Notes under the pieces: generated by a model
Told to the model about the DNA's origin: nothing
Seen by the model: the letters and a program-made list of their open reading frames with translations, nothing else
Database searches by the model: none
Position numbers and translations under genes: made by a program
In this document: in pieces, positions 4,055 to 61,974 of the stretch
Position numbering within the stretch: position 1 is the first letter of the stretch
Layout: the number at the start of each line of letters is the position of its first letter
Origin: Candidatus Moraniibacteriota bacterium
GTDB taxonomy: Bacteria > Patescibacteriota > Minisyncoccia > Moranbacterales > UBA1568
Assembly (NCBI GenBank): GCA_017983435.1
Contig: JAGOBM010000001.1
Coordinates: 47,916 to 111,915 of the forward strand
DNA length: 64,000 nt
Direction of reading: 5' to 3'

Positions 4055-4874
4055 TATGGACCTCTCGGCTTTCCTTCAATTCGATTTTCTACAGCGGGCG
4101 CTCGAAGCCGGCATCCTCGTCGGTATCGCTGCTCCGCTGCTCGGCATGTTTCTTGTTGTGCGCCGCTATTCGCTGCTTTCCGATGCATTGTCGCACGTGT
4201 CGCTCCTCGGCGTGGCGCTAGCGCTCATACTCAAGATCCCGATTTTTTTCGGTGCGCTTTTCCTTTCGGTCGCATCAGCGCTCGGCATGGAACGGCTGCG
4301 AGCGAGCGGCCGGATGCCTGGTGAGTCGGTAGTGGCGCTCTTCCTTTCGGGCAGTCTAGCGCTGGCAGTCGTGCTCCTATCCTCGCTCCGCGGGCTCAAT
4401 GCGAATATCATGAGCTATCTCTTCGGGAGTCTTTCGACCGTGACCGCGTTCGATCTCCTGATGCTCTGCGTAATCGTCGCGCTCGTTATCGTGTTCGTCT
4501 CCTGGAAGTATCATTCGCTCTTCCTCTCCTCGCTCGATGAGGAGCTCGCCCGGGTGTCTGGGGTCCGGGTTTCGCTCCTCAATGTCTGCTTTGTCTCTTT
4601 GGCAGCCGGCGTCGTCGCGGCTTCCATTCAGATCGTCGGCGCTCTCCTGATCGGCGCGCTCATGGTAATACCGGTGCTGGCAGCGCTCGAGCTCCGGCGC
4701 GGATTCTTCGCTACCCTGATGGCTGCCGAAGTTATCTCGGTCGTAGCGGTCATCATCGGGTTCTTCCTGTCGTACCATTTCAACCTGGCCAGCGGCGGCG
4801 CTATCGTGCTGGTCGCTATGGGCGGATATTTCCTCGCGTTTTTCTATCGGAGGCTGGTGCCGTCAATTATTTGA
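4044..4874 (+). CDS. znuB: Metal ABC transporter permease. The start is taken at the ATG at 4044, which overlaps the znuC stop; the ORF track begins at 3897.
   Basis: Multi-TM protein typical of ZnuB/TroC; in operon position. Confidence 0.8.
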   Translation: MNTDMDLSAFLQFDFLQRALEAGILVGIAAPLLGMFLVVRRYSLLSDALSHVSLLGVALALILKIPIFFGALFLSVASALGMERLRASGRMPGESVVALFLSGSLALAVVLLSSLRGLNANIMSYLFGSLSTVTAFDLLMLCVIVALVIVFVSWKYHSLFLSSLDEELARVSGVRVSLLNVCFVSLAAGVVAASIQIVGALLIGALMVIPVLAALELRRGFFATLMAAEVISVVAVIIGFFLSYHFNLASGGAIVLVAMGGYFLAFFYRRLVPSII

Positions 4875-5638
4875 TTTTTGATATGCCGGAAATCCAGAAT
4901 CAACGATTGAAATTCTTCACATGGAAGCGCATGGTATTGCGCTTCTTCTATCCTCTCTGGATAGTAGCGTCGAGCAAAAAAAAGATGGACGCGCTCAATG
5001 AGCGCAATATCCTGGACGCGTGCGCTGCTAGTGGCCGCATAACGATTTTTCTACATGGTATCGCTTCGACATACTACTTCGCTCCTTATTGGATCGTGAA
5101 GTGGTTTACCCGGAACGGTATCCATATGGTCTCGCTCGGGTATGATTACAATGCCGATCTCGCGACAGCGGCGAAGGATATCAAGATGCAGATAGATGCG
5201 ATCAGAGAGCGCTCTGGTGTCACGGAAATCAATATCGTCGGAGTCAGTCTCGGTGGTGTCGTAGGACGCTACTATGTCGAGGCTCTGGGCGGAAAGGATA
5301 TTACGCACAAACTGATCACGATTTTTTCGCCGATTATCCCGCCAGAGCCAGGAGAAACAAGTATCGCGCTCAGCATGAGCAAGCTGCTCAGTCACGGAAC
5401 AGCCGAACGATCAGCTAGCCAGAATCGGGTGATCAAGGATACGTTTGCAGTCAGGAATTACCTAGCGATCTATGGGACATCGGACTGGATCGTCGGCAAG
5501 CGGATGTATCCGCTGAAGCAGGCGCCTGAAAGCGTGCGCCAAGTTCCGCTCGCCGGAGGGCATATGCTGGTGACATACAATACGGATGCTGCGGAGGTAG
5601 CGCTGGACTATCTCCAGGAGTGTAGTATATCTGGCTGA
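4871..5638 (+). CDS. Alpha/beta-hydrolase, lipase/esterase-like.
   Basis: GXSXG motif GVSLGG and an alpha/beta-hydrolase-like layout. Confidence 0.55.
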   Translation: MIFDMPEIQNQRLKFFTWKRMVLRFFYPLWIVASSKKKMDALNERNILDACAASGRITIFLHGIASTYYFAPYWIVKWFTRNGIHMVSLGYDYNADLATAAKDIKMQIDAIRERSGVTEINIVGVSLGGVVGRYYVEALGGKDITHKLITIFSPIIPPEPGETSIALSMSKLLSHGTAERSASQNRVIKDTFAVRNYLAIYGTSDWIVGKRMYPLKQAPESVRQVPLAGGHMLVTYNTDAAEVALDYLQECSISG

Positions 5639-5667: not shown

Positions 5668-6335
5668 CTACTGGGCGGCGGGAGAGACAATGAGTGCTCT
5701 CTCGCTGATTTTGTGTGCCGGGACGCCTCCCCAGACTTCATTCGCTGGGATGACGGTGTCTTTGGGTACTACGGCGCCGGCGACGACGATACTGTTTTCT
5801 CCGATTGTCACACCGGGAAGAATGACAGCATTGACGCCGATCGTAACATAATTGCCGATTGTAATCGGCTGAGCTCCGAGGATGCCGGATTCCATGATAT
5901 GCGGTAGATGCAATTATCACCGATAGTGATCATCGAATAGGGATGACTCAGGATAGAACCGCTCGGATAAGTATTTTTTCCGATCTTTATTCCGAGCATG
6001 ATATGGATGAGCCGAGTGCATGGCAGAGGAATAGGGAGGCGGTGGAGAATCGGGTCGAAGAAGAAGATAACGAATAATGTCTGGAGTTGGTAGTGAAATT
6101 CTTCTGGTGATCTGTCAGTGTAGATACCGGGCGTGAGCGGGAAGAATCGGGCATGCAGCCGATGCGTGATGATGGTAAGGAGAGAGAAGATGGAGATCCA
6201 GAGGATACAAAGCGAGAGCGTGCTGCTAGTCCCGGTCCAAAGAAGGATGCCGGTGACGAGTAAGAAGCTCATGCTGCCGATGAGGAGGAGGATTGAGACG
6301 AAAAAAAATATGATGAGAGGAGGCATGGTTTTCAT
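5668..6335 (-). pseudogene. Possibly frameshifted hexapeptide-repeat (LbH) acetyltransferase. The N-terminal membrane-anchored part (5808..6335) is in one frame, and the C-terminal hexapeptide part (5668..5913, TTG start directly after a TAA) is in another.
   Basis: ITIGDNCIY at the end of frame A and HIMESGILGAQPITIGNYVTIGVNAVILPGVTIGENSIVVAGAVV in frame B; together they resemble a single WcaF/Mac-type transferase. Confidence 0.35.
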
Positions 6336-11146: not shown

Positions 11147-11219
11147 GGGCCCATAGCTCATTTGGTAGAGCACCTGCTTTGCACGCAGGGGGTGAGCGGT
11201 TCGAATCCGCTTGGGTCCA
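11147..11219 (+). tRNA. tRNA-Ala(TGC).
   Basis: Cloverleaf folds by hand; anticodon loop CTTTGCACG; G3:U70 alanine identity pair; no encoded CCA. Confidence 0.85.
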
Positions 11220-11296
11220 CCCTTGATTTTCTCGGATGCCTGGGGTACACTGGGCAACGTGGTGATCGAACCGGTTTTTTATTGTTGGAATTTCCC

Positions 11297-11370
11297 GGGC
11301 GATTAGCTCAGTTGGTTAGAGCGCGACACTGATAATGTCGAGGTCCCAAGTTCGAATCTTGGATCGCCCA
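11297..11370 (+). tRNA. tRNA-Ile(GAT).
   Basis: Cloverleaf; anticodon loop ACTGATAAT; acceptor stem GGGCGAT/ATCGCCC. Confidence 0.85.
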
Positions 11371-11395
11371 CACCGGCCATGTATGGCGGTATTAT

Positions 11396-11469
11396 AGCGG
11401 GGTAGAGCAGTCTGGCAGCTCGCTTGGCTCATAACCAAGAGGTCGGTGGTTCAAATCCACCCCCCGCAA
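11396..11469 (+). tRNA. tRNA-Met(CAT), possibly the initiator: A11:U24 pair and an unpaired 1-72 position.
   Basis: Cloverleaf; anticodon loop CTCATAA; D-stem GAGC/GCTC gives A11:U24. Confidence 0.65.
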
Positions 11470-11482
11470 CAAATGGAAAGAG

Positions 11483-11556
11483 GGCAGGGTAGCTCAGCCG
11501 GTTAGAGCACAGCACTCATAACGCTGAGGTCGTGGGTTCGATTCCCACCCCTGCTA
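11483..11556 (+). tRNA. Second CAT-anticodon tRNA, either elongator Met or tRNA-Ile2 (lysidine).
   Basis: Cloverleaf; anticodon loop CTCATAA; T-arm GTGGGTTCGATTCCCAC. Confidence 0.65.
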
Positions 11557-11580
11557 CACTTGAAAAAAGAACCAAGAACC

Positions 11581-11640
11581 AAGCTCCAATAACCAAGTAG
11601 CGTATTTCCTTGGTGATTGGATTTTGGTAATTGGAGCTCG
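11581..11640 (+). other. Stem-loop of about 60 nt between tRNAs (CAAGCTCCAATAACCAAG ... TTGGTAATTGGAGCTCG), possibly a processing or spacer structure.
   Basis: Near-perfect inverted repeat seen directly. Confidence 0.4.
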
Positions 11641-11652
11641 AATAGAGTCTAT

Positions 11653-11726
11653 GGGGGCGTAGCTCAGCTGGTTAGAGCGCCACACTGTCACTGTGGAGGT
11701 CGCGGGTCCGAATCCCGTCGCTCCCG
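11653..11726 (+). tRNA. tRNA-Asp(GTC).
   Basis: Cloverleaf; anticodon loop CTGTCAC; discriminator G73. Confidence 0.8.
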
Positions 11727-11735
11727 CCCATAGAA

Positions 11736-11768
11736 AAATACGGCCGGTTCATCCGGTCGTATTTTTTT
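11736..11768 (+). terminator. Intrinsic terminator ATACGGCCGGttcatCCGGTCGTAT followed by T9.
   Basis: Hairpin and T-run seen directly. Confidence 0.7.
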
Positions 11769-11899
11769 TGTGGAGCGAAAGAAATCAACTGCTTGATTTC
11801 TGTCGGGATGAGGAAAGCGGAGCGATGCCGAGCGAGTACGCGAGGCCGCGAGCTGGGGTCGCGAAAATCGGCGAGCGGCGGTGAGGCGATTATTCGTGA

Positions 11900-11924
11900 C
11901 CGAATCCCGTCGCTCCCGCCCATA
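11900..11924 (+). repeat. 25-nt partial copy of the tRNA-Asp 3' end (CCGAATCCCGTCGCTCCCGCCCATA), about 190 bp downstream of the intact gene.
   Basis: Identical to 11708..11732; looks like the partial tRNA copy left at the far end of an element integrated into a tRNA gene. Confidence 0.7.
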
Positions 11925-11958
11925 AACAAAAACAGGTCTCAGTGGACCTGTTTTTGTT
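11922..11958 (+). terminator. Second intrinsic terminator AACAAAAACAGGTCtcagtGGACCTGTTTTTGTT.
   Basis: Hairpin and T-run seen directly. Confidence 0.6.
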
Positions 11959-12093
11959 TGCTCAGGTGGGATATATGGATGAAGAATCCTGTCACTCTCA
12001 CCCAAAATATTCGGAAAGGGATACCGGATTGACAGAACGGATAGTCTCTGGTAGGGTGATATATCCCATTCGCCAAGGAAAGGAGGTGTCGTC

Positions 12094-12450
12094 ATGGGAG
12101 ATATCGTCGGTACGTGTATTACGTTCGGCAAACAGGAATGTGCGGTGATTGTCGCGCAGAAAGAGGTGTCGGGAGCACGGTTCATTGAATTGCTAGAGCA
12201 GAAAGTGATGGATGTCATTTTTCAGATCCATCATGAGATGGAGCGGATGCCGAGAAGCACACTCGTCGAATCTTTCACTGCCTCACCTCCTGAAAAGCCC
12301 TACTATGGTGATCTGATGATCGAAGTGGTCTACCGTCTCAGCGACGAAACTCGCTTTCGGCACACATTGCATTTCGTCTACGTCGATCGAGGGAGAAAGC
12401 TCGATGGAAAGCTGTATACGCAGCAGCGTCGCGAAATTCCACACTCATGA
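12094..12450 (+). CDS. Hypothetical protein, 118 aa.
   Basis: Strong SD AAGGAGGTG 7 nt upstream of the ATG; ordinary amino-acid composition. Confidence 0.5.
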   Translation: MGDIVGTCITFGKQECAVIVAQKEVSGARFIELLEQKVMDVIFQIHHEMERMPRSTLVESFTASPPEKPYYGDLMIEVVYRLSDETRFRHTLHFVYVDRGRKLDGKLYTQQRREIPHS

Positions 12451-12527
12451 TCGTTCCAGGACGATTTTCATAAAGACCGGGGAAGAATCTTTCTCCGGCT
12501 TTTTCTTTTTCTTTATTACAAATGGCT

Positions 12528-12625
12528 CAAAAAATCCTGGGGTGCGAGAAATTTTTTTCTTGCTGTACGCTCGGAAGCGTAGTGCATCGAAAAAATCTTT
12601 CTCGCACCCCAGGATTTTTTCTCGA
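12528..12625. other. Long hairpin of about 23 bp (AAAAAATCCTGGGGTGCGAGAAA ... TTTCTCGCACCCCAGGATTTTTT) with a 40-nt loop.
   Basis: Perfect inverted repeat seen directly. Confidence 0.5.
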
Positions 12626-12646
12626 GATATCAAAACGACACTGGAT

Positions 12647-12738
12647 GGATTATCGAGATGCAAAAGAGTTTTTCTCTGCCGCCCGAGACTTCCGAGGCGA
12701 TAGCAAGGAGAAAAGCTGCTTTTGTAGCTCGATAATCC
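12647..12738 (+). ncRNA. Candidate structured RNA or repeat element, copy 1: an 11-bp closing stem (GGATTATCGAG/CTCGATAATCC) encloses the conserved core ...CTGCCGCCCGAGACTTCCGAGGCGATAGCAAGGAGAAAAGCTGCTTTTGTAG.
   Basis: A second copy with about 85-90% core identity lies at 61975..62060, with a different but also perfect closing stem and a compensatory T:A to C:G change in the inner helix. Confidence 0.4.
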
Positions 12739-12995
12739 GGAATAGTAGAGAGGAGCGTGGGCTAACACTGCTTTTGTAGTTTGGTAGACTGTGATATTTC
12801 GTGGCTTGTTGTAGTGTTGCACTTACTTGTTGAACCTATCGGAGTTAGAATTGACACTTATTTTATTTTCTGCTATAATTTATTTCTTATCTGATTCTTT
12901 TTCTTGGGGGCCGAGATGTGTGAAAAGGGCTTGGGTAGGGGATAATTTACCGTGGATGATCCCAGAGAGGAGTATTCCACCCAAGCGAAGAATAT

Positions 12996-14228
12996 ATGTT
13001 TCGGAAGAGTTTCGAGAAACGCCACTCGCGTGAGCTGAAGCGCGATACCGGCAGGAATTACGTCGGACGGCAGCGCCAGAGCGGCAGCCGGGTCGGCAGC
13101 AGCAGGAAGAAGTTCGCGGGTATCGATCCGGCGTTGTTTGTGCGCAAGGCGATCGTGACCACCCAGGCTGAGGTATTCAATCCGAAGCACCGGTTCGCGG
13201 ATTTCAAGGTGGACCCGAAGCTGAAGGAGAATGTCGAGAAGCGTGGTTTTACAAATCCGACGCCGATCCAGGACGGGACGATTCCGTTCATCCTCGAAAA
13301 GCGCGATGTGATCGGTATGGCCAATACCGGTACCGGCAAGACGGCTGCTTTCCTCATCCCGCTCATCCACAAGGCGATGCATAAGGGAGGGGAGAAGGCT
13401 CTGATCGTCGTACCGACCCGCGAGCTGGCCAACCAGATCGATGCTGAGTTCCATGATTTTTCAGCCAGGACGGGCCTCCGGTCATCTGTCTGTATCGGCG
13501 GCGCCAATATCCAGATGCAGATCCGTCGTCTGCGTCAGGACCCGCATTTCATCATCGGTACCCCAGGACGGTTGAAGGACCTCGTCGAGCGCAAGCATCT
13601 CGATCTCTCGTCTTTCAACAACGTCGTGCTCGACGAAGTGGATCGCATGCTCGATATGGGCTTCATTCATGATATGAAATTCCTGCTCGCGCTCTTGAAG
13701 GAGCCTCGGCAGACCCTTTTCTTCTCGGCAACCCTGCCGAAGGAAATTGCGGAACTGGCGAAGAAATTCCTCAAGGATCCGATTACGGTCCGTATCGAAT
13801 CTCGAGCGACTGCTGAGAACGTCGAACAGAACGTGATCAACGTGAGGAAGAAGGATCAGAAAGTCGATATCCTGCATGATCTCCTCCTGAAAGAGGATTT
13901 CCAGAAGGTGCTGATCTTCTGTCGGACGAAGCGCGGAGCAGAGCGGCTGTCGAAGACGCTTCTTGAGAGCGGCTTCAAGTCAGACTCTATCCATGGCGAC
14001 AAGTCTCAGAGCCAGCGCGAGCGAGCGCTCCGCCGGTTCGAGGAGAATGCCCTCCAGGTGCTCGTCGCAACCGATGTCGCTGCGCGCGGCCTCGATATCG
14101 ATGATGTGACCCATGTCATCAATTTCGATGTCCCAGAGACCTACGAAGACTATATCCATCGTATCGGCCGTACTGGTCGCGGTGGGAAGACCGGCAACGC
14201 GCTGACCTTCATCGAAGAGGAGAAATAA
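12996..14228 (+). CDS. DEAD-box ATP-dependent RNA helicase with an Arg/Gly-rich N-terminus.
   Basis: Motifs TGTGKTAAFLIP, PTRELA, DEVD, SAT, HRIGRTGR. Confidence 0.85.
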   Translation: MFRKSFEKRHSRELKRDTGRNYVGRQRQSGSRVGSSRKKFAGIDPALFVRKAIVTTQAEVFNPKHRFADFKVDPKLKENVEKRGFTNPTPIQDGTIPFILEKRDVIGMANTGTGKTAAFLIPLIHKAMHKGGEKALIVVPTRELANQIDAEFHDFSARTGLRSSVCIGGANIQMQIRRLRQDPHFIIGTPGRLKDLVERKHLDLSSFNNVVLDEVDRMLDMGFIHDMKFLLALLKEPRQTLFFSATLPKEIAELAKKFLKDPITVRIESRATAENVEQNVINVRKKDQKVDILHDLLLKEDFQKVLIFCRTKRGAERLSKTLLESGFKSDSIHGDKSQSQRERALRRFEENALQVLVATDVAARGLDIDDVTHVINFDVPETYEDYIHRIGRTGRGGKTGNALTFIEEEK

Positions 14229-38512: not shown

Positions 38513-39106
38513 CTATTTCTCGTGCTTGATCGCGCGGATCTCCTGGAGGAGGATCTCGATCGCCGATTCGATCTTCTCAATGCGCTTCTGGTCCTCGGTG
38601 CGCTCGACAGCGTCTTCCTGGTCATCCCTCTCGATTTCTACGCCGAGCTCATCGACATCCTCAGATATGTCCTCCACATCCTCGCTGATCTCTTTCACGT
38701 CTTCCTGGATGGTATCGATATCCTTGGAAATCTCCTCCACATCCTCGCTGATCTCTTCCACATCTTCCTGGATGGTATCGATATCCTTGGAAATCTCTTC
38801 CACATCCTCAGATATGTCTTCCACGTCTTCGCTCACTTCCTCGATCTGCTTGGCGTGCTGATTGACCGTCATCTGGATGAAGAGCGAGAGATAGATCGCT
38901 TCGAGTGAGACGAGAGTCGTCAGGATAAGCATGATCTGGTCGAACGAGAACCCGAACAGCTGCAGCGTGAAGATGCCGACGAAGAAGCAAGTGTGCAGGA
39001 TGAGCGAGGTCGGCGATCCGAGATACTGTGGGGCAGCGAGCGCGAGGGATTCGACGCGTGAGGCCTTCGGTTCCGTGACTTCCGGCAATGGGAGCGGGGT
39101 TTCCAT
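38513..39106 (-). CDS. DUF1003-family membrane protein with a C-terminal acidic tandem-repeat coiled-coil.
   Basis: FDQIMLILTTLVSLEAIYLSLFIQMTVNQHAKQ matches the DUF1003 core; repeated EDVEEISKDIDTIQ units follow. Confidence 0.6.
   Translation of the reverse strand: METPLPLPEVTEPKASRVESLALAAPQYLGSPTSLILHTCFFVGIFTLQLFGFSFDQIMLILTTLVSLEAIYLSLFIQMTVNQHAKQIEEVSEDVEDISEDVEEISKDIDTIQEDVEEISEDVEEISKDIDTIQEDVKEISEDVEDISEDVDELGVEIERDDQEDAVERTEDQKRIEKIESAIEILLQEIRAIKHEK
38640..38850. repeat. Tandem DNA repeats of about 66 nt, three or more units, inside the DUF1003 gene.
   Basis: Near-identical blocks ATCTCCTCCACATCCTCGCTGATCTCTTCCACATCTTCCTGGATGGTATCGATATCCTTGGAA. Confidence 0.75.
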
Positions 39107-41179: not shown

Positions 41180-44100
41180 TTGGAAGAAATAGATTGTATG
41201 TCAGCAATAACAAACGTAGGGGCAAATACATTGTCATCTAATCTCAAAAGCATTCTTCCGAATTGTGATCGGGTAGATGCTCTTGTTGGTTATTTCTATT
41301 TTTCTGGATTCAAAGATCTTCATCATGAGCTCGAAGATAAGCAGATTCGGATTCTTGTCGGGATGGATATAGATAGGAAAATAATTGAGAAAGTGTCGAC
41401 ATTGAAGGATATTAATCTTGATTTCCATACGATCGAAACAAAAATTTCGTCTCGCTCAGGGGCGAAAGATGATTATATCGAAAACTTCTCAAAAGTTTTT
41501 AATGATACGGATTATTTTGATAATGAGGAGTCGCAAGTAGCCTTTGAAATATTTCTTGGGAAGATTCAGGATGGGAGTCTGCAGATTAAGAAGACTGCAC
41601 AAGCTAATCATTCTAAATTCTACATACTTCACAATAAACCGGAATTTTCCATGAATGGTATAACTCCGGGTATCGTTATTGAAGGTTCTAGTAATCTAAC
41701 CTTTTCTGGTTTGAAAGGACAAGGGGAGCATAATAGGATTTTGCAAGAAAAACATTATTATGATGATGATGTTCAGCGATTTGAAGAGTGCTGGAATGAT
41801 CCGGACAACATCATTATTACGGATTTGGACTCCTCAGAATCCTTTATCAAGGAGGTGAAGAGCAGAATCTGGCTTTATTCATTGCCGGATCCGCTTCTTA
41901 TGTACTACCGGGTGTTGAGCGAATACTTTTCCATCACGGAAGTCGAGGACATGAAGACCCCGAAGAATATAACCGGCGGGAAGTTTTCTGATCTTAAATA
42001 TCAGAAGGACGCGATCAATCTTGGTATTGACCGGATTAAGAAATTCGGCGGGGTGATAATTGCGGATGTTGTCGGACTCGGGAAAAGTATTGTGGCTTCC
42101 GCTATTGCTCATAACTTAGGCATGAAGACGCTTATCATTGCGCCACCACACCTTGAGAGCCAGTGGAAAGACTACATGGCAGAATTCGATTTCAAAGGTT
42201 TTGTGTATACGACTGGGAAAATCGAGGAGGCTCTCGAGAGACATGGGAGTGATGATGGAAAGTTATTGATTATTCTCGACGAAGCGCATAAGCACCGGAA
42301 CGAGGATACGGACAACTACAAAGTGCTCCATCGTCTCTGTGCTGGTCACTATGTGATGGCTCTTTCCGCGACTCCGTTCAATAATGATCCAAAAGATATC
42401 TATGCGCTCATAAAACTGTTCAGTACACCGGGACAGTCGACTATCCGGACCGTGGAGAATTTGAGCATGTCGTTCCATATGCTTTTCAAGCGATACAAGA
42501 CAGTGAGAAGGCAGCTCCGTAATACAGGAAAAGATGACAATGGCGAGGGGTCTACTATCAGAGTTGAACTTCATTCCATCGCTGATGAATTGCGTAGGAT
42601 GATAGAGCCGCTCATTATCCGGCGATCAAGATTGGATCTCGAGGAAATCGACGAGTACCGGAACGATCTGAAAGCGCAAGGAATTTCTTTCGCGAAGGTA
42701 CATGATCCAGAATTACTCGAGTACGAACTGGGAGATATGTTTGACCTGTATGTTGGGACACTCGAGAAAATCGCTCCGGAAGACAAGAGCACAAGTTTCA
42801 TCGGCGCGAGGTACAAGCCGGCTAGTTATATCCGGCAGGGGTCGGAGTTTATCAAGAAGCTTGTCGAGGGTGACGATGACGAGGATGGCGTATCTCCTGA
42901 AGAAAAACTCCATAGCATCAAACAGGCGCAGGTGAACATCACGAAGTTCATGCGAAGATTACTGGTGAGGCGCTTTGAAAGTTCAATCGGTGCGTTCAAA
43001 CTTTCACTGGGGAATATGATCACGTCTTCGGAAGTGATGCTGGATTGGTATGTGAATAGACATGAAGTTCCTATTTTCAAGAAGGGGGCGCTCCCGGATG
43101 TCGAAGATCTGAATGAGATGGACGATAAGGAACGGGAAGATCTTCTTTCAAAATTCGAGGATAAGGGACTCATCAGGATACCTGTTGCGGAACTTCAGCC
43201 GGAGTTTGAATCGCATTTGAGAAGCGATATAGTTCTGCTTAAAGAGATACAAGGGAAGTGGGCGCACAATTCTGATGATCCGAAATACGAATTCCTTAAG
43301 AAGAAATTGTCTGAAGCTATTTTTCAAGACAAGAAGCGGAAGATCATCATCTTTACGGAGTTTTCTGATACCGCCAATTACGTTTATCAAAAACTGAACG
43401 ATGATGGATTCAAGAGGGTATTCAAATATAGTTCGGAAGATTCCACTGATGAGAACAAGCGGATTATCCGGGCTAATTTTGATGCTGGGTTGGATGATGC
43501 GAAACAAACCGATGATTATGATGTCATTATCGCAACAGATGCGATTTCGGAAGGATTCAACCTGCACCGCGCCGGCATCGTCATCAACTATGATATTCCT
43601 TACAATCCGACGAGAGTGATCCAGCGTGTTGGTCGTATAAACCGCATCAACAAGAAGGTTTTTGACGAGTTGTATATATACAACTTTTTCCCAACTTTGA
43701 CCGGCGAGATGGAGACCCGGACGAAGGCGATCTCGACACTAAAGATGGATCTGATTCATACGCTTCTCGGGGAGGACACCAAGACATTGACATCCGATGA
43801 GGATTTGAAGAATTACTTCGCGAAGCAGTACAAGGAGGAAAATTCGAAAAGCGAGAAGCTCTCATGGGATGCTCCATACAGGAATACCTGGCTCTCCATA
43901 AAAGACGACCAGGATATAATGCGAAAAATCGCTGAAATTCCCCATCGATCAAGAATCGCAAGGAAAGCGAAAATTTCTGGTGTTGTGGCATTTGCCAAGA
44001 AGAGTGGAAACTACGTATTTGCGTTTGGTGAGAGTCCGGAGACTGTGCAGATTGTATCCCCGCAGATTGCTCTACCATTGTTCAATGAGGTCGCGGATTT

Positions 44101-44488
44101 AGAGCAACCTCTCCAGACGACTATCAACTTTGATCCAATTTATAAAATAGCCAAGGAACATATCTTTAAGGATAACACTCGATCGCCGGTTGATAGCGGA
44201 AGAAAACAGGACTCACTTAATAAAATTAAGATCCTTTCGGATAATTATCCTCAAGCCAAAGATCTTTGTATTGACCTGATTAGGGTTATTAAGGATCTTG
44301 ACGGTCTGCCGAACGGAGTGCTTAAGGAAATCGCAGAGCTAAAAATCGACAAGAACGATTTTGGAAAAGCGTTCCAGGAATTGAAGGAGCTCGTGCCACA
44401 CAAGTATCTCGAAAGCATATTTAGGACAGCGGATCGAGCCAATGACACTGGGAAGCTTATTGTCTTATCCGAAGAGTTGGTCGTATGA
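41180..44488 (+). CDS. Fusion of an N-terminal PLD-family (HKD) nuclease domain with an SNF2-family helicase, 1102 aa.
   Basis: HSKFYILHN...GSSNLT matches the HxK...GSxN PLD motif; SNF2 motifs ADVVGLGKS (I), ILDEAHKHRN (II), LSATPFNN (III), and helicase C-terminal motifs DAISEGFNLH and QRVGRINR. Confidence 0.85.
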   Translation: MEEIDCMSAITNVGANTLSSNLKSILPNCDRVDALVGYFYFSGFKDLHHELEDKQIRILVGMDIDRKIIEKVSTLKDINLDFHTIETKISSRSGAKDDYIENFSKVFNDTDYFDNEESQVAFEIFLGKIQDGSLQIKKTAQANHSKFYILHNKPEFSMNGITPGIVIEGSSNLTFSGLKGQGEHNRILQEKHYYDDDVQRFEECWNDPDNIIITDLDSSESFIKEVKSRIWLYSLPDPLLMYYRVLSEYFSITEVEDMKTPKNITGGKFSDLKYQKDAINLGIDRIKKFGGVIIADVVGLGKSIVASAIAHNLGMKTLIIAPPHLESQWKDYMAEFDFKGFVYTTGKIEEALERHGSDDGKLLIILDEAHKHRNEDTDNYKVLHRLCAGHYVMALSATPFNNDPKDIYALIKLFSTPGQSTIRTVENLSMSFHMLFKRYKTVRRQLRNTGKDDNGEGSTIRVELHSIADELRRMIEPLIIRRSRLDLEEIDEYRNDLKAQGISFAKVHDPELLEYELGDMFDLYVGTLEKIAPEDKSTSFIGARYKPASYIRQGSEFIKKLVEGDDDEDGVSPEEKLHSIKQAQVNITKFMRRLLVRRFESSIGAFKLSLGNMITSSEVMLDWYVNRHEVPIFKKGALPDVEDLNEMDDKEREDLLSKFEDKGLIRIPVAELQPEFESHLRSDIVLLKEIQGKWAHNSDDPKYEFLKKKLSEAIFQDKKRKIIIFTEFSDTANYVYQKLNDDGFKRVFKYSSEDSTDENKRIIRANFDAGLDDAKQTDDYDVIIATDAISEGFNLHRAGIVINYDIPYNPTRVIQRVGRINRINKKVFDELYIYNFFPTLTGEMETRTKAISTLKMDLIHTLLGEDTKTLTSDEDLKNYFAKQYKEENSKSEKLSWDAPYRNTWLSIKDDQDIMRKIAEIPHRSRIARKAKISGVVAFAKKSGNYVFAFGESPETVQIVSPQIALPLFNEVADLEQPLQTTINFDPIYKIAKEHIFKDNTRSPVDSGRKQDSLNKIKILSDNYPQAKDLCIDLIRVIKDLDGLPNGVLKEIAELKIDKNDFGKAFQELKELVPHKYLESIFRTADRANDTGKLIVLSEELVV

Positions 44489-47400
44489 TGAAATTCAACG
44501 AGAAATATCAACCCGATGATTTTCTGCAATTTTTGCAGGAGTTTTTACCGGAAGATTTTTCAGAAAAAGAGGAAGATATTGTCATCAACAAGGAACGATA
44601 TAAGGTGATAACCGAAGCTACGGTTCTTGGCTACTGTGGCTCGCTCGATCTTCATGTTTTGGAGATGGTCCATACCAGAGAAAAGGATCCTCGGGTTTCT
44701 ATTACTACAGATGCGTTCAAGATTCTTGCTGATAATTGGATTCATCGTGCGCTGGTCGTTTTTAGGAACAAGGATACCGAGAATTATCGGTTTTCATATT
44801 TGACTATCACTCTTGATCTAAATGATAAGAGTAAAGCAGTTAAAAAGTATTCAAATGCACGGAGATATTCTTTCTATCTAGGAGCGAATGCAAAGGTGCG
44901 GACGCCGGAGCAGCAGTTGATCAAGAAAGGGAGAATTAAGGATGTCGACGATCTGCTCACCCGGTTCTCGGTGGAGGTGGTCAATAAGCAATTCTATCTT
45001 GAGGTGGCCAAATTTTTTGATGAGCTTGTATCGGGTGAGGGTAAAAATTTGTCGCTTCCGAGCGTATCGCAGGAAAACGTAAATGTTAGGAAGAGCTTTG
45101 CTGTCCGGTTGATCGGCCGCCTGATGTTCTGCTGGTTTTTGAAACAGAAGAAATCTGAATCAGGCCAGCTTATTCCCGATGAATTGCTTTCTTCTGATGT
45201 CGCTAGGAAGACAAGTGGTTATTATCACGGCATTCTTGAGCCGCTCTTTTTTGAGGTGCTGAACACGAGTATTAACACTCGTGGCATCAGGAGCGAGTTG
45301 TTCGATAGGGTGCCGTATTTGAATGGTGGACTTTTTAATCCTCAGCCGGAGGATTACTACGAATTAGACGGAAGTACATTTTTTTCGAAGTATATCAATA
45401 CGCTTTCGATAAGTGATCAGTGGTTCGTGGATTTCTTCGAACTCCTCGAACTGTATAACTTCACCATCGATGAAAACACGGTGTTCGATCAGGAGCTTTC
45501 CGTGGATCCGGAGATGCTCGGGAGGATCTTCGAGAATTTGCTTGCCGAGATAAATCCGGAAACCGGGAGCAGCGAGCGGAAACGGACTGGGAGTTTTTAC
45601 ACCCCACGGCAGATCGTGGAGTATATGGTCGACCAGTCGCTCATAGAATACTTCAAGACCAAGACGAGCATCGACGAAGCGAAACTCGCCGCGCTTGTGA
45701 GTTACGATCTTAATGATGATGCTGGCTATCCATTGTCGGATGATGAGAAACAGAAAGTGGTGATGGCGATTGAGACCCTGAAACTTCTTGATCCGGCCTG
45801 TGGATCTGGCGCATACCCGATTGGGGCACTCCAGAAGATCGTTTATATCCTCCAGATCGTCGATCCGGACTGCAAACTCTGGCTTAATGAGAAGCTGAAA
45901 GACGTCCCAGATCTGTACAAACAGAAGATCATTAATGAAGTTCACTCAAACCCATTTGATTACACGCGCAAGCTCGATGTGATTAAAAATTCCATTTTCG
46001 GAGTGGATATCCAGCCGATTGCTGTGGACGTATCTCGTTTGCGGTGTTTTCTTACACTTGTTGTGGAATCGGAGATTGACGATATAAAGCCAAATCGAGG
46101 CATTGAACCACTGCCAAACCTTGATTTCAAATTCGTATGCGCCAATACGTTGATTGGTCTCCCGAAGGCGGAGTCGAGCGGATTGTTTGATGACCATTCT
46201 GGAATTTCAGAACTTTCAAAGATCATGTCAGAGTATTTCTCCTGTAATAGTCAGAGAAAAAATGAAATTCGTCTTAAGTTTCTTCATGTTCAAAAAGATA
46301 TCCTCGAGAAAACTATTTCTGCCTTTGGAAAAAATACTGGAGAGCTCACGCTGAGGCTCGCCACATGGAATCCGTTCAGTAATAATTCTAATAGCTGGTT
46401 TGATCCGGAGTGGATGTTTGGTATTACAGAAAAGTTCGATATTGTAATCGGAAATCCTCCTTATAATGTTAAATTATCTGGCGAGGAGAGAAAATTTTAT
46501 AAAGGAAATTATATAGGGGTAAAGTCTGGAAGACAGGATACCGCTGCAATTTTTGTTGAGGCAGCTTCGCGGTTTAGCAATAACGAATCTATTGTATGTT
46601 TTATCATCCCATACCGGCTGTTCTCTCGAAAAAGAAATCATGGAGCTTTCCAAGAGTATGTTCTGAAAAATTCTTCAATAAATGAGATAGTTTATCTAGG
46701 AAAGGATGCTGGGTTTGACACTGCAAAAGATGAATTTATGATCGTGGTGTTTTCGAAATATGAACACGATAATTCTATAAGAATTTGCAGTAAGCCCGAT
46801 TTCAAGAATCTAAATAGACTAGATTTTTCGCGTGTCGCCCAGTGTATATTCGAGAAAAGTAATGAAATTAATATAAATGTTTCTAAGTTTGACACGCGAA
46901 TTTTATCAAAGATAGAAAAAGGGAATCCCATTTTATCAGACATATGTTATGTCAAAGATGGAATAGTCCCGTATATTCGGGAGAAAATGATAAGCCAAAG
47001 AAAAATTGATGATCGTTATGTAAAGTTCGCTGGTGTTTCTGGAACGTATAAGCTTGATAGGTACGCATTTACCGCAGATGAGATGTATTTATGCTATGAC
47101 ATATTAGAAGCAAAAAAGTATATATCGGATATTAACGAATTAAGAAAAGTGCAGTTAAGGGATAAGGCAATCTTCTTGCAAGATGAGAAAATCATTACTT
47201 CTCAGAATAGCGCGAAATTAAAAGGATCGATTGATACTGAACAGTATTTCGTATCTAATTCGATACACAGTACATACCTCAAAGAAGAATGTAAGGACAA
47301 GTATAAACTATCCTTTATTTTAGGTTGTATCAATTCTTCCTTGCTAAATTATTACTATAACTCGAAGCGGTTGAAGGGAGTGGATTTGCACCCACAGATA

Positions 47401-47610
47401 TTAATTACAACATTGAAACTATTGCCGATTCCAGCGATCATTGGGGAGCGAGTTGTGGTGGTTAAAGAAGTTATTTCTTTAGTTGAGGATGTGATGAGAA
47501 TGAAAAAGTCTGGTACAAATACTGAGGATTTAGAAAACAAGATTGATGAGCTTGTTATGGATCTTTACGGACTCAATGATGAAGAAAAGGAAGTTGTAAG
47601 AAATTCGTAG
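44485..47610 (+). CDS. Gamma-class N6-adenine DNA methyltransferase of the Eco57I/MmeI/PglX type, with an N-terminal domain of about 350 aa and a C-terminal TRD-like region; 1041 aa. Translationally coupled to the upstream gene by an ATGA overlap.
   Basis: GSFYTPRQIVEYMV (motif X), LLDPACGSGAYP (motif I), VIGNPPYNV (motif IV). Confidence 0.85.
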   Translation: MMKFNEKYQPDDFLQFLQEFLPEDFSEKEEDIVINKERYKVITEATVLGYCGSLDLHVLEMVHTREKDPRVSITTDAFKILADNWIHRALVVFRNKDTENYRFSYLTITLDLNDKSKAVKKYSNARRYSFYLGANAKVRTPEQQLIKKGRIKDVDDLLTRFSVEVVNKQFYLEVAKFFDELVSGEGKNLSLPSVSQENVNVRKSFAVRLIGRLMFCWFLKQKKSESGQLIPDELLSSDVARKTSGYYHGILEPLFFEVLNTSINTRGIRSELFDRVPYLNGGLFNPQPEDYYELDGSTFFSKYINTLSISDQWFVDFFELLELYNFTIDENTVFDQELSVDPEMLGRIFENLLAEINPETGSSERKRTGSFYTPRQIVEYMVDQSLIEYFKTKTSIDEAKLAALVSYDLNDDAGYPLSDDEKQKVVMAIETLKLLDPACGSGAYPIGALQKIVYILQIVDPDCKLWLNEKLKDVPDLYKQKIINEVHSNPFDYTRKLDVIKNSIFGVDIQPIAVDVSRLRCFLTLVVESEIDDIKPNRGIEPLPNLDFKFVCANTLIGLPKAESSGLFDDHSGISELSKIMSEYFSCNSQRKNEIRLKFLHVQKDILEKTISAFGKNTGELTLRLATWNPFSNNSNSWFDPEWMFGITEKFDIVIGNPPYNVKLSGEERKFYKGNYIGVKSGRQDTAAIFVEAASRFSNNESIVCFIIPYRLFSRKRNHGAFQEYVLKNSSINEIVYLGKDAGFDTAKDEFMIVVFSKYEHDNSIRICSKPDFKNLNRLDFSRVAQCIFEKSNEININVSKFDTRILSKIEKGNPILSDICYVKDGIVPYIREKMISQRKIDDRYVKFAGVSGTYKLDRYAFTADEMYLCYDILEAKKYISDINELRKVQLRDKAIFLQDEKIITSQNSAKLKGSIDTEQYFVSNSIHSTYLKEECKDKYKLSFILGCINSSLLNYYYNSKRLKGVDLHPQILITTLKLLPIPAIIGERVVVVKEVISLVEDVMRMKKSGTNTEDLENKIDELVMDLYGLNDEEKEVVRNS

Positions 47611-47628
47611 GTATAGTTATAGTTTTGT

Positions 47629-48501
47629 ATGGAAAGTCAGCTTTTTTCAGAAAAATCTTTGGCGGATCATTTATTTGATATCTGTTATGATGGTCCATCT
47701 TTTGATGGTGCCATGGAAATTTCTTTGTTAAAAAATGAAATAGCTGGTCTTGATAATGCTTTACGTATAGCAGCGCAAGTTTTAGCAAAACATAAAAAAA
47801 TCGACTTTCGTTCTGGTGATGTAGAGATTTATATTGAGGCTTTTGAGAGGGGTTCTTTTAAGAAAAAAGTTAAAGTTGTTTTAAAATCTTTACAGGATTT
47901 AAACCAGTATCAAGGTGCGATAGCTCTGGGGGCGTTAGTTATTAGTGTGATGACATTCGTAAAACAACAGGAGACTTTAGATATAGACCATATACCACCG
48001 GAAATAATGGCTCAGTTTAAGACTCAAGTGGAGTATGATTTGTTACAGAATAGAGAATTTCTTAAGTCTGTTTCTGATATTGTTGCCCCATTGAATCAAA
48101 GCGGTGATCATTTACATATAGCCGTCCCGAAAAATTCTGAAACCGATATAGATTACTTGGATAAAGAAAAATTTATTAAATTAGCACTACCCAGCGTGGT
48201 TGAAGGGGTTGATGGCGATAAACACGAGATAATCGTAGGGCGGATTAATCGCGTTGATCTCGATGCTACTATTCGCCATATTGGATTCAAGGTAAAAGGA
48301 GAGGGGTCTTCGATTCCGGCAACGCTTTCAACTCAGGTAAAATCTTCTGTTAGTATGAATGACTTACTGGGGAAGTGGGTGGAAATGGGTGCTTTAACTA
48401 CGTATAAAGGCGATATCAGAGAGCATATCGAGATTGAGGATATAAAAATAGTAGAACAACAAAAACTCCCCATTGATTTTAATAATGAAGGAATCGAGTG
48501 A
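47629..48501 (+). CDS. Hypothetical protein, 290 aa, island cargo.
   Basis: ORF with AT-rich codon usage matching the island. Confidence 0.5.
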   Translation: MESQLFSEKSLADHLFDICYDGPSFDGAMEISLLKNEIAGLDNALRIAAQVLAKHKKIDFRSGDVEIYIEAFERGSFKKKVKVVLKSLQDLNQYQGAIALGALVISVMTFVKQQETLDIDHIPPEIMAQFKTQVEYDLLQNREFLKSVSDIVAPLNQSGDHLHIAVPKNSETDIDYLDKEKFIKLALPSVVEGVDGDKHEIIVGRINRVDLDATIRHIGFKVKGEGSSIPATLSTQVKSSVSMNDLLGKWVEMGALTTYKGDIREHIEIEDIKIVEQQKLPIDFNNEGIE

Positions 48502-48546
48502 TTTGGCGTTAAAAAATTCGTTGTAAGTTAGGGATTACTAGGCAAT

Positions 48547-49368
48547 ATGCGTTTTTCTCAAAGAATAGGTAAATCTTCAATAAGGACAGAAATTCAAGTT
48601 GATTCGATGGATGATCGACTAAGGAACCGACTTTTTAATGTTGTGAAAGACTATATAGATCAACAATTGGCCTTCTGGGATGCGGGACGATATATTAAGC
48701 ATGATTTTATTGTTCAATATTGTGATTGTTTTGGTAAGTTACATAAGAGTGATGACTACGAAGATTTTTTTAAAGAATTATTCCAAAAAATATTTGTTAA
48801 TGAAGATATTTTTTTCTTTTATGATTTTATAGAATTTGTAGTTCGGCGGGGCGCACATAGTAAAGAAATTCTTATTCATGAATTCAATCGTATTTTTGAA
48901 GAAGAAAAATCAGCGTACAAACTTGATATTAGTGGGTCTTTAATACAAATTACAGATGATATTGAGCTTGAAGAGATTGATTTGGCAATAGCGAGTGCGA
49001 GCGAGTATAAGAGTGTACAAGAGCATTTGGAGAAGGCTAGGGGATTTTTCTCTAGCCGTGAAAATCCTGATTACAAGAAATCTATCGAAGAATCTGTTCA
49101 TGCTATAGAGGCAATGGCTAAAATAGTAGTAAAAGATAAAAATGCTATTTTGAGTGATGCGTTGAAGAAGATAAATGATTTGCACCCAGCTTTGAATCAG
49201 AGTTTGCAAAAGTTGTATGCCTTTGCCGGGGATGCAAGCGGTATTCGTCATAGTAACAAAGAGCCTGTTGATTCTGAAAAAGAACATTCTGTAGGAATTG
49301 GTGAGGCAAGAATGATTCTTGTTTTGAGTCACTCAATGATTAATTATTTGAAAGAGAAGTTTTTGTAA
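48547..49368 (+). CDS. Hypothetical protein, 273 aa, possibly AbiJ-N-terminal-like plus a HEPN-like C-terminus (ARMILVLSH, Rx6H).
   Basis: N-terminus MRFSQRIGKSSIR and the C-terminal Rx6H motif; weak manual similarity only. Confidence 0.45.
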   Translation: MRFSQRIGKSSIRTEIQVDSMDDRLRNRLFNVVKDYIDQQLAFWDAGRYIKHDFIVQYCDCFGKLHKSDDYEDFFKELFQKIFVNEDIFFFYDFIEFVVRRGAHSKEILIHEFNRIFEEEKSAYKLDISGSLIQITDDIELEEIDLAIASASEYKSVQEHLEKARGFFSSRENPDYKKSIEESVHAIEAMAKIVVKDKNAILSDALKKINDLHPALNQSLQKLYAFAGDASGIRHSNKEPVDSEKEHSVGIGEARMILVLSHSMINYLKEKFL

Positions 49369-49678: not shown

Positions 49679-50074
49679 ATGCAAGCCTGCGAGACGGTCG
49701 GGGAATATATGGAGGGGCTGCCTGAGGGAGTGCGGGCGGAGTTCACTCTGCTCTGGCAGACAGTCCGGGAGCTGGTACCAGGGGGCGAGGAAGTGATCCG
49801 CTACGGGATGCCGACTATGCGGGTGGTGGGGAAGAATCTCGTCCACTGCGCCGTCATGAAAGAGCATTTCGGATTCTATCCGACCCCTTCGGGCGTGAAG
49901 GCATTTGAGAGCGAGCTTCTTGGGAAATATCGGTATTCCGAGGGTGCTATCCAGTTTCCGTTCGGCGAGCGGCTGCCGCTCCCGCTTGTCCGCAAGATCG
50001 TGCGCTTCCGCCTCTCCGAAGAATCTTCCCTCCCAGAATCCCTCGAAATCCCACCCTCCAAAAAAGTAACATAA
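49679..50074 (+). CDS. DUF1801/YdhG-like protein.
   Basis: Pattern HCAVMKEHFGFYPTPSGVKAFESELL; 131 aa. Confidence 0.55.
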   Translation: MQACETVGEYMEGLPEGVRAEFTLLWQTVRELVPGGEEVIRYGMPTMRVVGKNLVHCAVMKEHFGFYPTPSGVKAFESELLGKYRYSEGAIQFPFGERLPLPLVRKIVRFRLSEESSLPESLEIPPSKKVT

Positions 50075-50075
50075 T

Positions 50076-50097
50076 TATACGGCCGTGGAATTATGTT
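50076..50097. promoter_or_regulatory. Palindromic element TAATTATACGGCCGTGGAATTATG upstream of the PaaX-like gene; a related copy lies downstream of it.
   Basis: The arm CGTGGAATTATG is shared with 50759..50783. Confidence 0.4.
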
Positions 50098-50154
50098 ACA
50101 ATATAAAAAAGAGAAGATGTATTTTTCGGATACGATATAAGGTGCAGAAGATGT

Positions 50155-50760
50155 ATGTATAAGTTCGGCCCGGTTCAACAGAAGCTCCTCCTCCTGCTTG
50201 TCGCTGGAATCGGGTTGGGATTGGAGACTTCCTCTATCCGCTATTATCAGAAGCTCGGAGCGATAGTGAGGGAATGGAAACGTATCGATCAGCGAAGTAT
50301 CAAGCGTTCCGTAAGGCGCTTGTGCAGTGAGAAGCTGGTCAGGGAAATCATCCAGCCTGATGGATCATTCAAGCTCGTGCTTACGGAGGAGGGGAAGAGG
50401 CAGGCTCGCATCCAATTTCTTTTCGACAATTCGATCCGTTTCAAGAATTCGAGGCGATGGGATAAGAAATGGCGTATCGTCATGTTTGATATCCCGGAAA
50501 AGGAGAGAGGATTCCGCGATATTCTGCGCGAGCATCTGCGTGAATTGAATTTTTATAAGCTGCAGCAGAGTGTCTTCGCTTCCCCGAATCCGTGCGAGAA
50601 GCAGATAGCGGAACTGGTATCGTTGTATAGAGCGGAATCGTTGGTGCGTGTAATGACAGTCGATTGGATCGATAACGAGAAGAAGCTCAGGGATTATTTT
50701 TTTGGCCAGAAATCTTCCCGGAAAATTACTCAGAAAACCGAATATGAAACGGTATCATAA
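50155..50760 (+). CDS. PaaX-like transcriptional regulator: N-terminal wHTH plus a C-terminal PaaX_C-like domain.
   Basis: WDKKWRIVMFDIPEKERGFRDILREHLRELNFYKLQQSVFASP resembles the PaaX C-terminal signature. Confidence 0.45.
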   Translation: MYKFGPVQQKLLLLLVAGIGLGLETSSIRYYQKLGAIVREWKRIDQRSIKRSVRRLCSEKLVREIIQPDGSFKLVLTEEGKRQARIQFLFDNSIRFKNSRRWDKKWRIVMFDIPEKERGFRDILREHLRELNFYKLQQSVFASPNPCEKQIAELVSLYRAESLVRVMTVDWIDNEKKLRDYFFGQKSSRKITQKTEYETVS

Positions 50761-50783
50761 TTCCACGGTCGTGGAATTATGAT
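50759..50783. promoter_or_regulatory. Perfect palindrome AATTCCACGGTCGTGGAATT (20 bp) overlapping the stop of the PaaX-like gene.
   Basis: Seen directly; related to the upstream copy. Confidence 0.4.
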
Positions 50784-50986
50784 ACTTTTAAAAATGCGGG
50801 ATTATTCTTAATGGGGACAGATATGGAAAAATCCTACCAGCAGTGCCAGTCGTGCAGCAGATCCCGAAGAGCTGGTAAGATAGGCTGATCCGGAGCGGTA
50901 AGTAGATCGAATCAGGGGCTTGACTTCCGGGTGTATACTGGAAGAGTCAATGAGGGGGGGTGTAATTCGTAACGCAGAACATGCTT

Positions 50987-53404: not shown

Positions 53405-53953
53405 ATGTACGTTTTTATCGATGAATCCGGTACGAACAAAGGAAGCGGATACTCGGCTTTTGCATTGGTCTATATAGCGGTGGACGATTATAGGATTTTT
53501 GATCGTGCCGTGATAGAAATCGAAAAGACTCTCGGGATCGAGAGTTTCCATTGGGCTAAGAATGCTCCACTAGTCCGGGCGAAGTTTTTTGAAGGTATGA
53601 TGAAACTTGATTTCAAATCGAAGATTGCGATTGTGCGTAATCCGTCGCTGCCTGACAGCGAGATGGAGCGTCTCTTGCCCCATATGCTGATAGAAAAAAA
53701 TATCCGATCGATTGTTTTGGATGGGAAAAAACCGAAGTGGTATCAGAAAAAACTCAAAAAGATATTGCGCGATCGGGGTGTTACGACGAAAAAGTTGAAG
53801 ATAGAAAATGATAGGAGTTCCGGGGGTATTCGTGCAGCGGATGCGATAGCGGGTTTGGCGCGGGCTTACTATGATGGGAAGGGCGGATCCGTAGTCCGGG
53901 AGCGGTTCGAACAGCTCAAACGAAAGAAGAAGATAATGCTTATTTTAGAATAA
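53405..53953 (+). CDS. DUF3800-family protein.
   Basis: N-terminal MYVFIDESGT motif. Confidence 0.6.
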   Translation: MYVFIDESGTNKGSGYSAFALVYIAVDDYRIFDRAVIEIEKTLGIESFHWAKNAPLVRAKFFEGMMKLDFKSKIAIVRNPSLPDSEMERLLPHMLIEKNIRSIVLDGKKPKWYQKKLKKILRDRGVTTKKLKIENDRSSGGIRAADAIAGLARAYYDGKGGSVVRERFEQLKRKKKIMLILE

Positions 53954-54189
53954 TAAGTATTCGCCTTAGAGCCTGCCTACGACGATTCGTGTAGCGATTC
54001 AGATTGGCCAGTTCTGGACACTGGAGTGATGTTTCGTCGGGTAATAAACAAAAACCCCAGCTTACGCCGAGGTCAGGGTGTCCGCTAGCCTTTCGGCTCT
54101 CCCTCTGGGATTTGTCGCGGAACCCTCGTTGGTACTTCTATAGTATACTGGACGTGAAGTTGTGTCAAAGATCTAACGGGAATGCGCTT

Positions 54190-61872: not shown

Positions 61873-61974
61873 AAGGGAATTGTTTTTTAAGAAAATAATG
61901 ATGGAAAAGTAGATTGTATTTCGTTGATCGAAAAAGCAGATTTTCTTTGAATATCAACCTGGATAATGCGCACT

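Follow-up and report, generated by a model that had tools for sequence, protein, structure and literature searches.

Covarying intergenic hairpins upstream of a DEAD-box helicase gene and uvrB are best read as members of a REP-like genomic repeat family

The window, that is, the whole 64-kb stretch of DNA that was analyzed, carries hairpin-forming repeats at two intergenic loci, one upstream of a DEAD-box helicase gene and the other upstream of uvrB. At the first locus, a 118-amino-acid (aa) ORF (positions 12094 to 12450, plus strand), which has no Pfam match and is annotated as a gene in all related assemblies, is followed by its own canonical terminator (12477 to 12498); a 176-aa minus-strand ORF (11688 to 12218) that overlaps it is probably spurious. 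Between this terminator and a 12/12 sigma-70 promoter (12851 to 12879) lie copy A of the repeat (12529 to 12620, minus strand) and, 26 nt to its right and in the opposite orientation, copy B (12646 to 12739, plus strand). They are followed by CTGCTTTTGTAGTTTGGTAG, the remnant 3′ arm of an older family member (12768 to 12790, plus strand), which emerged from a comparison of window positions 12440 to 13000 with positions 4380 to 4935 of a related strain (L015). The helicase ATG is at 12996, downstream of the promoter, and the −35 element of this perfect promoter lies 113 nt downstream of copy B. Placed between terminator and promoter, copies A and B are outside the predicted helicase leader and transcript; copy B lies upstream of the helicase gene, as the first-pass annotation had placed it, but not in its leader. 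The helicase protein (12996 to 14228) is 100% identical over 410 aa to that of L015 (4930 to 6162) and is indexed in identical form in 41 blocks of the assembly collection. The gene differs from that of L015 at 4.4% of its nucleotides (95.6% identity), so that all 54 nucleotide differences are synonymous, and the neighboring DNA is 84 to 91% identical. At the second locus, copy C (61973 to 62062, plus strand) lies between two divergent genes, a PEMT/ICMT-family gene (start at 61872, minus strand) and uvrB (ATG at 62256). To the left of copy C, a remnant arm, CGAAAAAGCAGATTTTCTTT (61929 to 61950), complementary to the family 3′ arm, is the one-sided vestige of an older copy that enclosed copy C.

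Several other features were recorded in the window. Five tRNA genes (Ala-TGC, Ile-GAT, two Met-CAT, and Asp-GTC) occupy positions 11147 to 11730, and the 3′ end of tRNA-Asp recurs 192 nt downstream as a 39-nt direct repeat (11895 to 11933; 87% identity) that resembles an att-type remnant. Past this repeat, the DNA is strain variable, with two extra genes (135 and 325 aa) in L015, L017, and L018. A degenerate tandem repeat with a unit of 21 or 63 nt (38592 to 38860) lies within a coding region and, read in the minus-strand sense, probably encodes many acidic residues. A defense-like island (41180 to 49368) contains a SNF2-family helicase with a faint PLD match, an Eco57I-type methyltransferase/endonuclease of about 1,040 aa, an unknown 290-aa protein, and a protein with an AbiJ N-terminal domain. 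A different palindromic repeat, GTAACATAATT..AATTATGTTAC, occurs at 50061 to 50108 and 50725 to 50812 (686 nt apart, 77% identical); it has an operator-like look and lies near PspC, DUF1905, and Bro-N genes. A DUF3800-II RNA (Rfam RF02961; 65 bits versus a threshold of 43.2) at 54071 to 54132 on the minus strand lies just downstream of a DUF3800-family gene on the opposite strand (53405 to 53953, plus), and a LexA-like gene and a Bro-N gene are found immediately upstream.

No dispersed direct repeat in the window is longer than the one shared by positions 12659 to 12725 (copy B) and 61984 to 62050 (copy C) (67 nt, 90% identity), and the 24-mer GCCCGAGACTTCCGAGGCGATAGC occurs exactly twice, compared with an expectation of zero from 100 shuffles. 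The two distant copies with a shared core that the first-pass annotation had described are thus present as placed, and the different but perfect closing helices that it assigned to them are as described: GGATTATCGAG/CTCGATAATCC, the locus-specific outer stem, in copy B and CTC(TC)CTGGGT/ACCCAGGAG(AG) in copy C (outer stem CTCTCCTGGG/CCCAGGAGAG). In the inner helix TTTTCYCTGC/GCRAGGRGAAAA, T:A and C:G pairs are exchanged between the copies. Each copy forms one long imperfect hairpin, with folding energies of −47.5 (B) and −51.5 (C) kcal/mol (z = −7.3 and −6.2), and no shuffled sequence was equally stable. Two details of the earlier description were revised. The tip is not a plain 12-nt loop but is predicted to be a 7-nt loop, AGACUUC, closed by C-G and G-C pairs, plus a bulged A; in addition, the CGCC/GGCG helix, correctly noted to read TGCC in the second copy, still pairs there through a U·G wobble and is not broken. 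The reverse strands of copies B and C also fold well (z of about −6.3), and folding energy alone therefore indicates neither RNA nor a particular strand. A covariance model of the family (R1) does separate the strands, with copy B scoring 100.2 bits on the plus strand versus 26.2 on the minus strand and copy C scoring 102.9 bits on the plus strand. Copy A, which the first-pass annotation had missed, was found by an inverted-repeat scan. It has the same scaffold with a different tip (type 2, ACTACGCTTCCGAGCGTAC, versus the type 1 tip of copies B and C, CCGAGACTTCCGAGGCGAT), 30-nt arms that are 93% complementary, and a stem bordered by A6/T6 runs. It is a diverged member that scores 43.9 bits in model R1 on the minus strand versus 33.2 on the plus strand, and its core is identical in L015, L022, and L026.

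When 185,579 species-representative genomes were scanned for exact matches to the 21-nt core, 12 copies, distributed over eight contigs and present on both strands, turned up in a single related metagenome-assembled genome (MAG), CAZOKB01, labeled “uncultured Bdellovibrionales.” This MAG represents a relative of the window's organism and not the same organism: one of its contigs (L011) is collinear with window positions 51.4 to 64 kb at about 80% identity. A core match in an unrelated MAG (L009) was set aside as a chance occurrence, as the wider sequence does not fit the family model. A scan of JGI and ENA metagenomes added further contigs with copies, from several related species. The covariance-model scan of relatives that had been suggested earlier then gave 32 members above the alignment threshold and 35 in all, in about 0.3 Mb of lineage DNA; the copy number looks modest, in the tens and not in the hundreds. 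Both database scans required the type 1 tip, so that its apparent invariance is partly a matter of ascertainment; copies recovered by the model only, with a few tip substitutions, are found in L020 (position 734), L025 (594), and L031 (426). There was no match in viral contigs scanned with the type 1 and type 2 cores or in a plasmid search with the whole hairpin, and a literature search on REP elements in Bdellovibrio returned nothing relevant. The earlier failure to match the motif to a known RNA family was borne out by Rfam 15, which, across the whole window at gathering thresholds, reported only tRNAs and the DUF3800-II RNA, with no match to the hairpins, and in permissive scans at both loci reported only subthreshold microRNA hairpin look-alikes (24 to 37 bits versus thresholds of 79 to 100). 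The repeats also leave their mark on assemblies: Logan contigs of run SRR11088476 end within the invariant core, with position 1 of L019 corresponding to window position 12680 (copy B) and the end of L033 to position 62029 (copy C), as is expected where de Bruijn assemblers stop at repeats.

Every copy forms a hairpin of 81 to 94 nt, with a graded conservation that rises from base to tip. The outer stem (9 to 12 bp) differs between loci but is always complementary, with a loose consensus of TCTCCYGGG/CCCRGGAGA. The scaffold, YGCRAAAGAGGTTTTCC...GGAAAATCTGCTTTYGYR, is about 85 to 90% conserved and includes a fixed asymmetric internal loop and four fixed G·T wobble positions. For the tip, this common scaffold carries any of at least three cassettes, namely, the type 1 and type 2 tips of the window copies and a third type, CCGCGGTGCTTTAAACCGCT. 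In a MAFFT alignment of 14 sequences, compensatory changes occur in 18 of 33 pairs. Across 32 copies, in an alignment that was fitted to model R1 and is thus biased toward pairing, 96.6% of cells are paired and both sides have changed in 25 of the 33 pairs; none of 500 shuffles reached these values, and slid controls were 41 to 54% paired. The covariation first seen as T:A and C:G exchanges in the inner helix is therefore real and far above controls. The top strand scores about 100 bits in model R1 and the reverse strand about 30. There are 110 G·T pairs in total, and at nonfixed positions 27 G·T are found versus 14 A·C, so the top-strand hairpin is clearly better than the reverse-strand hairpin. 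The conserved asymmetries and the near-invariant tip suggest that the hairpin of one strand may be recognized by a trans-acting factor.

The boundaries of the repeat are, in contrast to its tip, the least conserved part. No conserved terminal repeat was found, the bases flanking the stems are not conserved, and a GTAG-type REP tetranucleotide is absent from the foot of the hairpin. In 29 of 32 copies, the junctions have direct repeats of 0 to 1 nt, which indicates no target-site duplication beyond chance. The copies thus carry no signature of transposition. The outer stems also lack the RYYYAAC...GTTRRRY boxes (R″/R′) of integron attC sites. A terminator scan did not flag the hairpins, most of which lack a U-tract; A/T runs beside the stem are restricted to the type 2 copies at the A locus, and neither conserved flanks nor sites resembling promoters or terminators were found around the copies. 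The idea that the outer stems are preexisting target palindromes split by insertion was rejected, since they share a loose consensus. In addition, a paralogous pair (L020 positions 884 to 972 and copy C with its L011 counterpart) has the outer stem and 7 nt of adjacent flank in common, which indicates that outer stems travel with the element. In k-mer counts over 35 copies, enrichment is limited to arm remnants and A-runs, so that two flank motifs common to copies B and C, ATATCAA and CTGGAT, may be degenerate arm fragments.

All 17 copies that could be placed against ORFs, which were called in the copy-bearing loci by a crude longest-ORF rule, are intergenic. Those between codirectional genes are about half sense and half antisense; seven of the 17 lie 15 to 50 nt (often 15 to 30 nt) downstream of a stop codon, several occupy 130- to 190-nt spacers between codirectional genes at 16 to 65 nt from the neighboring ORFs, and copy C and the L002 copy lie between divergent gene starts. 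Pfam scans of the ORFs beside copies in the window and the MAG identified unrelated housekeeping products (a DEAD-box helicase, UvrB, DprA, RuvA, and a YgjP-like protein), the others being unknown; among the neighbors checked by Pfam, in about 0.3 Mb of lineage DNA, there was no transposase, integrase, HUH enzyme, or RAYT. Adjacent copies are oppositely oriented in 9 of 10 pairs, for which rapid deletion between adjacent direct repeats would be the simplest explanation. In L013 and L022, the exact place of the tip cassette in an enclosing copy is taken by a complete hairpin flanked by short spacers, and these nested units are predicted to fold as a hairpin within a hairpin, with an outer helix of 27 to 30 bp built of family arms. 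One-sided arm remnants accompany many copies, including those beside copies B and C noted above. Together, nesting and cassette exchange suggest that the hairpin tips may be a preferred site of insertion or gene conversion.

At orthologous sites, the hairpins are 75 to 94% identical, compared with 23 to 88% for the adjacent 60-nt flanks, which are mostly near the random level of 48%. In 6 of 10 orthologous comparisons, not all of which are independent, the hairpin is reversed in place relative to collinear flanks: copy C versus L011, L001 versus L020, copy A versus L015 and L026, and copy B versus L026 and L023. At the copy C locus, the block at 61933 to 62067 is inverted relative to both flanking genes, with L011 positions 5991 to 6124 matching window positions 62067 to 61933 at 87% by BLAST and the flanks remaining collinear. 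At the position of the remnant at 12768 to 12790, the related strain has a complete hairpin, inverted (L015 positions 4633 to 4720). A single block inversion of the A-B pair was considered and rejected, as the order of A and B is kept and each copy is reversed individually. The strains with inverted A and B hairpins have an identical helicase protein. The L001 site carries a type 3 tip in one species and a type 1 tip in two others, with a similar outer stem, and L020 and L031 each have one extra copy that is missing from the MAG orthologue. The in-place flips argue against a discrete functional RNA.

In terms of classification, the family is one more variant in the general class of bacterial stem-loop repeat families. 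Its closest points of comparison include the REP/BIME sequences of Enterobacteria and Pseudomonas, which are mobilized by RAYT/TnpA-REP. Like these, it consists of dispersed extragenic imperfect palindromes (at least 12 copies in one MAG), located in short spacers and often just past stop codons, with several sequence types per genome, long vertical persistence, clusters of alternating orientation (9 of 10 adjacent pairs), and probable activity as the hairpin of one strand. It differs from REPs in its unit length (81 to 94 nt versus 20 to 40 nt), in having no 5′ GTAG-like tetranucleotide and a tip that is the most conserved part, in that no RAYT gene was found among the neighbors checked in about 0.3 Mb of lineage DNA, and in a copy number that appears to be in the tens rather than the hundreds. 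The alternating arrangement of REPs within BIMEs is described in PMC2817692. REPIN DNA repeats commonly show compensatory changes on both sides (Bertels and Rainey 2011, PMC3116915), and the present family shares with them these frequent compensatory changes, a hairpin of about 100 nt predicted in single-stranded DNA (ssDNA) or RNA, and a within-genome sequence population. However, the ends of REPINs (REP 16-mers) are invariant and the spacer is variable, whereas in this family the center is invariant and the ends are variable, and two invariant inverted REP ends were not found. To our knowledge, self-nesting and in-place inversion have not been described for REPINs.

The MITE-like stem-loop repeat families of bacteria (ERIC/IRU, Correia/NEMIS, BOX, and RUP; surveyed in PMC2267715) are also lineage-specific long stem-loops of about 100 nt that occur in either orientation in intergenic, often cotranscribed DNA and at times contain internal insertions. 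Unlike them, the present family has neither the terminal inverted repeats nor the target-site duplications of MITEs, but it has exchangeable tip cassettes. Integron attC sites resemble the family in being imperfect palindromes of similar length that are recognized as a folded single strand, with structure conserved above sequence and functionally important unpaired bases. The family differs from attC in lacking the RYYYAAC/GTTRRRY end boxes, in conserving its center and not its ends, and in being scattered among housekeeping genes on many contigs instead of arrayed between cassettes. Replication template switching produces multibase compensatory changes and exact loop inversions (PMC8794818), and would account, by mutation alone, for the two-sided stem changes and exact inversions between arms seen here at 6 of 10 orthologous sites; however, it is a mutational process and not an element family, and it leaves the dispersal and the conserved tip unexplained. 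Given the compensatory changes of REPINs and the effects of template switching, covariation cannot discriminate between RNA and repeat models. The copies also do not resemble intrinsic terminators, since a T-run is missing from most of them and half run antisense to the gene before them, or cis-regulatory leaders and riboswitches, for which a 5′ UTR position, a fixed sense orientation, and a recurrent gene family were looked for and not found.

On the best reading of these data, the covarying hairpins behave as a REP-type genomic repeat and not as a regulator of the helicase gene or uvrB. We consider it probable, though well short of certain, that the motif represents a previously undescribed, lineage-specific REP/BIME-like family of extragenic palindromic repeats that acts as a single-stranded hairpin. 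If so, the window copies near the helicase gene and uvrB would be bystander insertions in permissive intergenic DNA. A structured DNA repeat was among the options that the first-pass annotation had left open, and the evidence favors it. Its principal argument, that covarying stems with conserved loops mark a functional RNA, stands as regards structure and covariation but not as regards the conclusion, given a sequence that is multicopy, arbitrarily oriented, inverted in place, and nested. As the outcome that would speak against a functional RNA, it had named a multicopy REP/BOX-type repeat without covariation; many copies were indeed found, and they do covary, so that only half of this outcome was observed. 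In the mechanism that we propose, selection would act on the hairpin that one given strand forms in single-stranded nucleic acid, of which ssDNA exposed at replication is the likeliest candidate. The near-invariant tip may be recognized by a trans-acting protein, by analogy with RAYT/TnpA-REP on REPs, which is a conjecture. Insertion or gene conversion aimed at existing hairpin tips would spread the copies and keep them alike, and intrapalindrome template switching, together with selection for foldability, would account for stem complementarity and in-place inversions. Several observations weigh against the repeat reading: no candidate partner protein was found near any copy in about 0.3 Mb of lineage DNA, no signature of transposition was seen, the copy number looks modest, conservation at orthologous sites and the near-invariant tip would also fit a host function, including that of an RNA, and the tip is the most and the ends the least conserved part, which is the opposite of REPINs and MITEs.

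These observations leave some room for other explanations. It is unlikely, but worth stating, that the hairpins are the substrate of an unrecognized system that reads one strand, either a tip-homing, cassette-exchanging ssDNA mobile element or a set of structured small RNAs with conserved loops bound by a dedicated protein; if this were true, inversion in place would be actively driven, perhaps as a switch, instead of reflecting mutational noise. Similarly unlikely is a cis-acting, host-domesticated RNA, in which a 35- to 40-bp hairpin would serve as a 3′-end stabilizer, an RNase III site, a roadblock, or a terminator-like insulator. Such an RNA would be transcribed by read-through from neighboring genes, and because both strands fold (z of about −6), either orientation would be workable. 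The position of 7 of 17 copies at 15 to 50 nt past a stop codon, the persistence of the hairpins as conserved islands at orthologous sites with decaying flanks, and the A- and T-runs that border the type 2 copies at the A locus, as in bidirectional terminators, are all in keeping with this role. However, a generic hairpin role does not explain the near-invariant tips, the fixed asymmetric bulges, or the top-strand G·T bias. Copy C and the L002 copy, between divergent gene starts, have no 3′ end to protect, a canonical terminator is already present on the gene preceding copy A, and most copies have no U-tract.

A family of multicopy, independently transcribed small RNAs (sRNAs) is improbable; in such a family, the conserved apical loop (CGAGACUUCCGA or a variant of it) would be the binding site for a protein or target RNA, with nothing but pairing required of the basal stem. 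The strong covariation with a conserved loop, a strand preference consistent with G·U pairs, and the conservation of every copy at orthologous sites are what such sRNAs would show, but the flanks are unrelated and have no conserved promoter or terminator, and several copies are confined to codirectional spacers of 130 to 190 nt, at 16 to 65 nt from ORFs. Inversion in place (6 of 10 comparisons) would moreover disconnect a strand-specific gene from an external promoter, nesting and remnant arms are typical of repeats and not of genes, and Rfam holds no match. A site in double-stranded DNA, i.e., a cruciform or bound palindrome for a nucleoid-associated or topology-related protein, is distinctly improbable. 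REP/BIME sequences offer a precedent in their binding of gyrase, IHF, and Pol I, and the intergenic, orientation-independent location of the copies would suit such a site. So would the clusters in alternating orientation, an arrangement that PMC2817692 describes for BIMEs; however, a duplex or cruciform site would not be expected to favor the hairpin of one strand so consistently, with 110 G·T pairs that become A·C mismatches on the other strand. Finally, control of the helicase gene and uvrB by a cis-regulatory leader or riboswitch, an option raised in the first-pass annotation, would suit the position of copies B and C 5′ of, and on the same strand as, two genes of the DNA/RNA helicase type. 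It can be given almost no weight, as it is contradicted by the position of copy B upstream of the helicase promoter, by the inversion of the hairpins both at the uvrB locus and in related genomes whose helicase protein is identical, and by the presence of other copies beside unrelated genes (ruvA and a ygjP-like gene) in any orientation.

As a repeat family with textbook covariation (25 of 33 pairs), these dispersed DNA palindromes, which behave as a genomic repeat, call for caution in motif discovery and provide a counterexample to the rule that covarying stems with conserved loops equal a functional RNA. The hairpin repeat also fragments short-read assemblies of these organisms and is therefore worth masking or modeling. 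With respect to the family itself, it unites three features, namely, tip conservation above a base that is free to vary, self-nesting, and frequent exact inversion in place. Together, these may make it a model for how compact bacterial genomes, here of a lineage represented by uncultured organisms, keep up long palindromes by means of template switching, gene conversion at the tips, and the loss of direct-repeat pairs.
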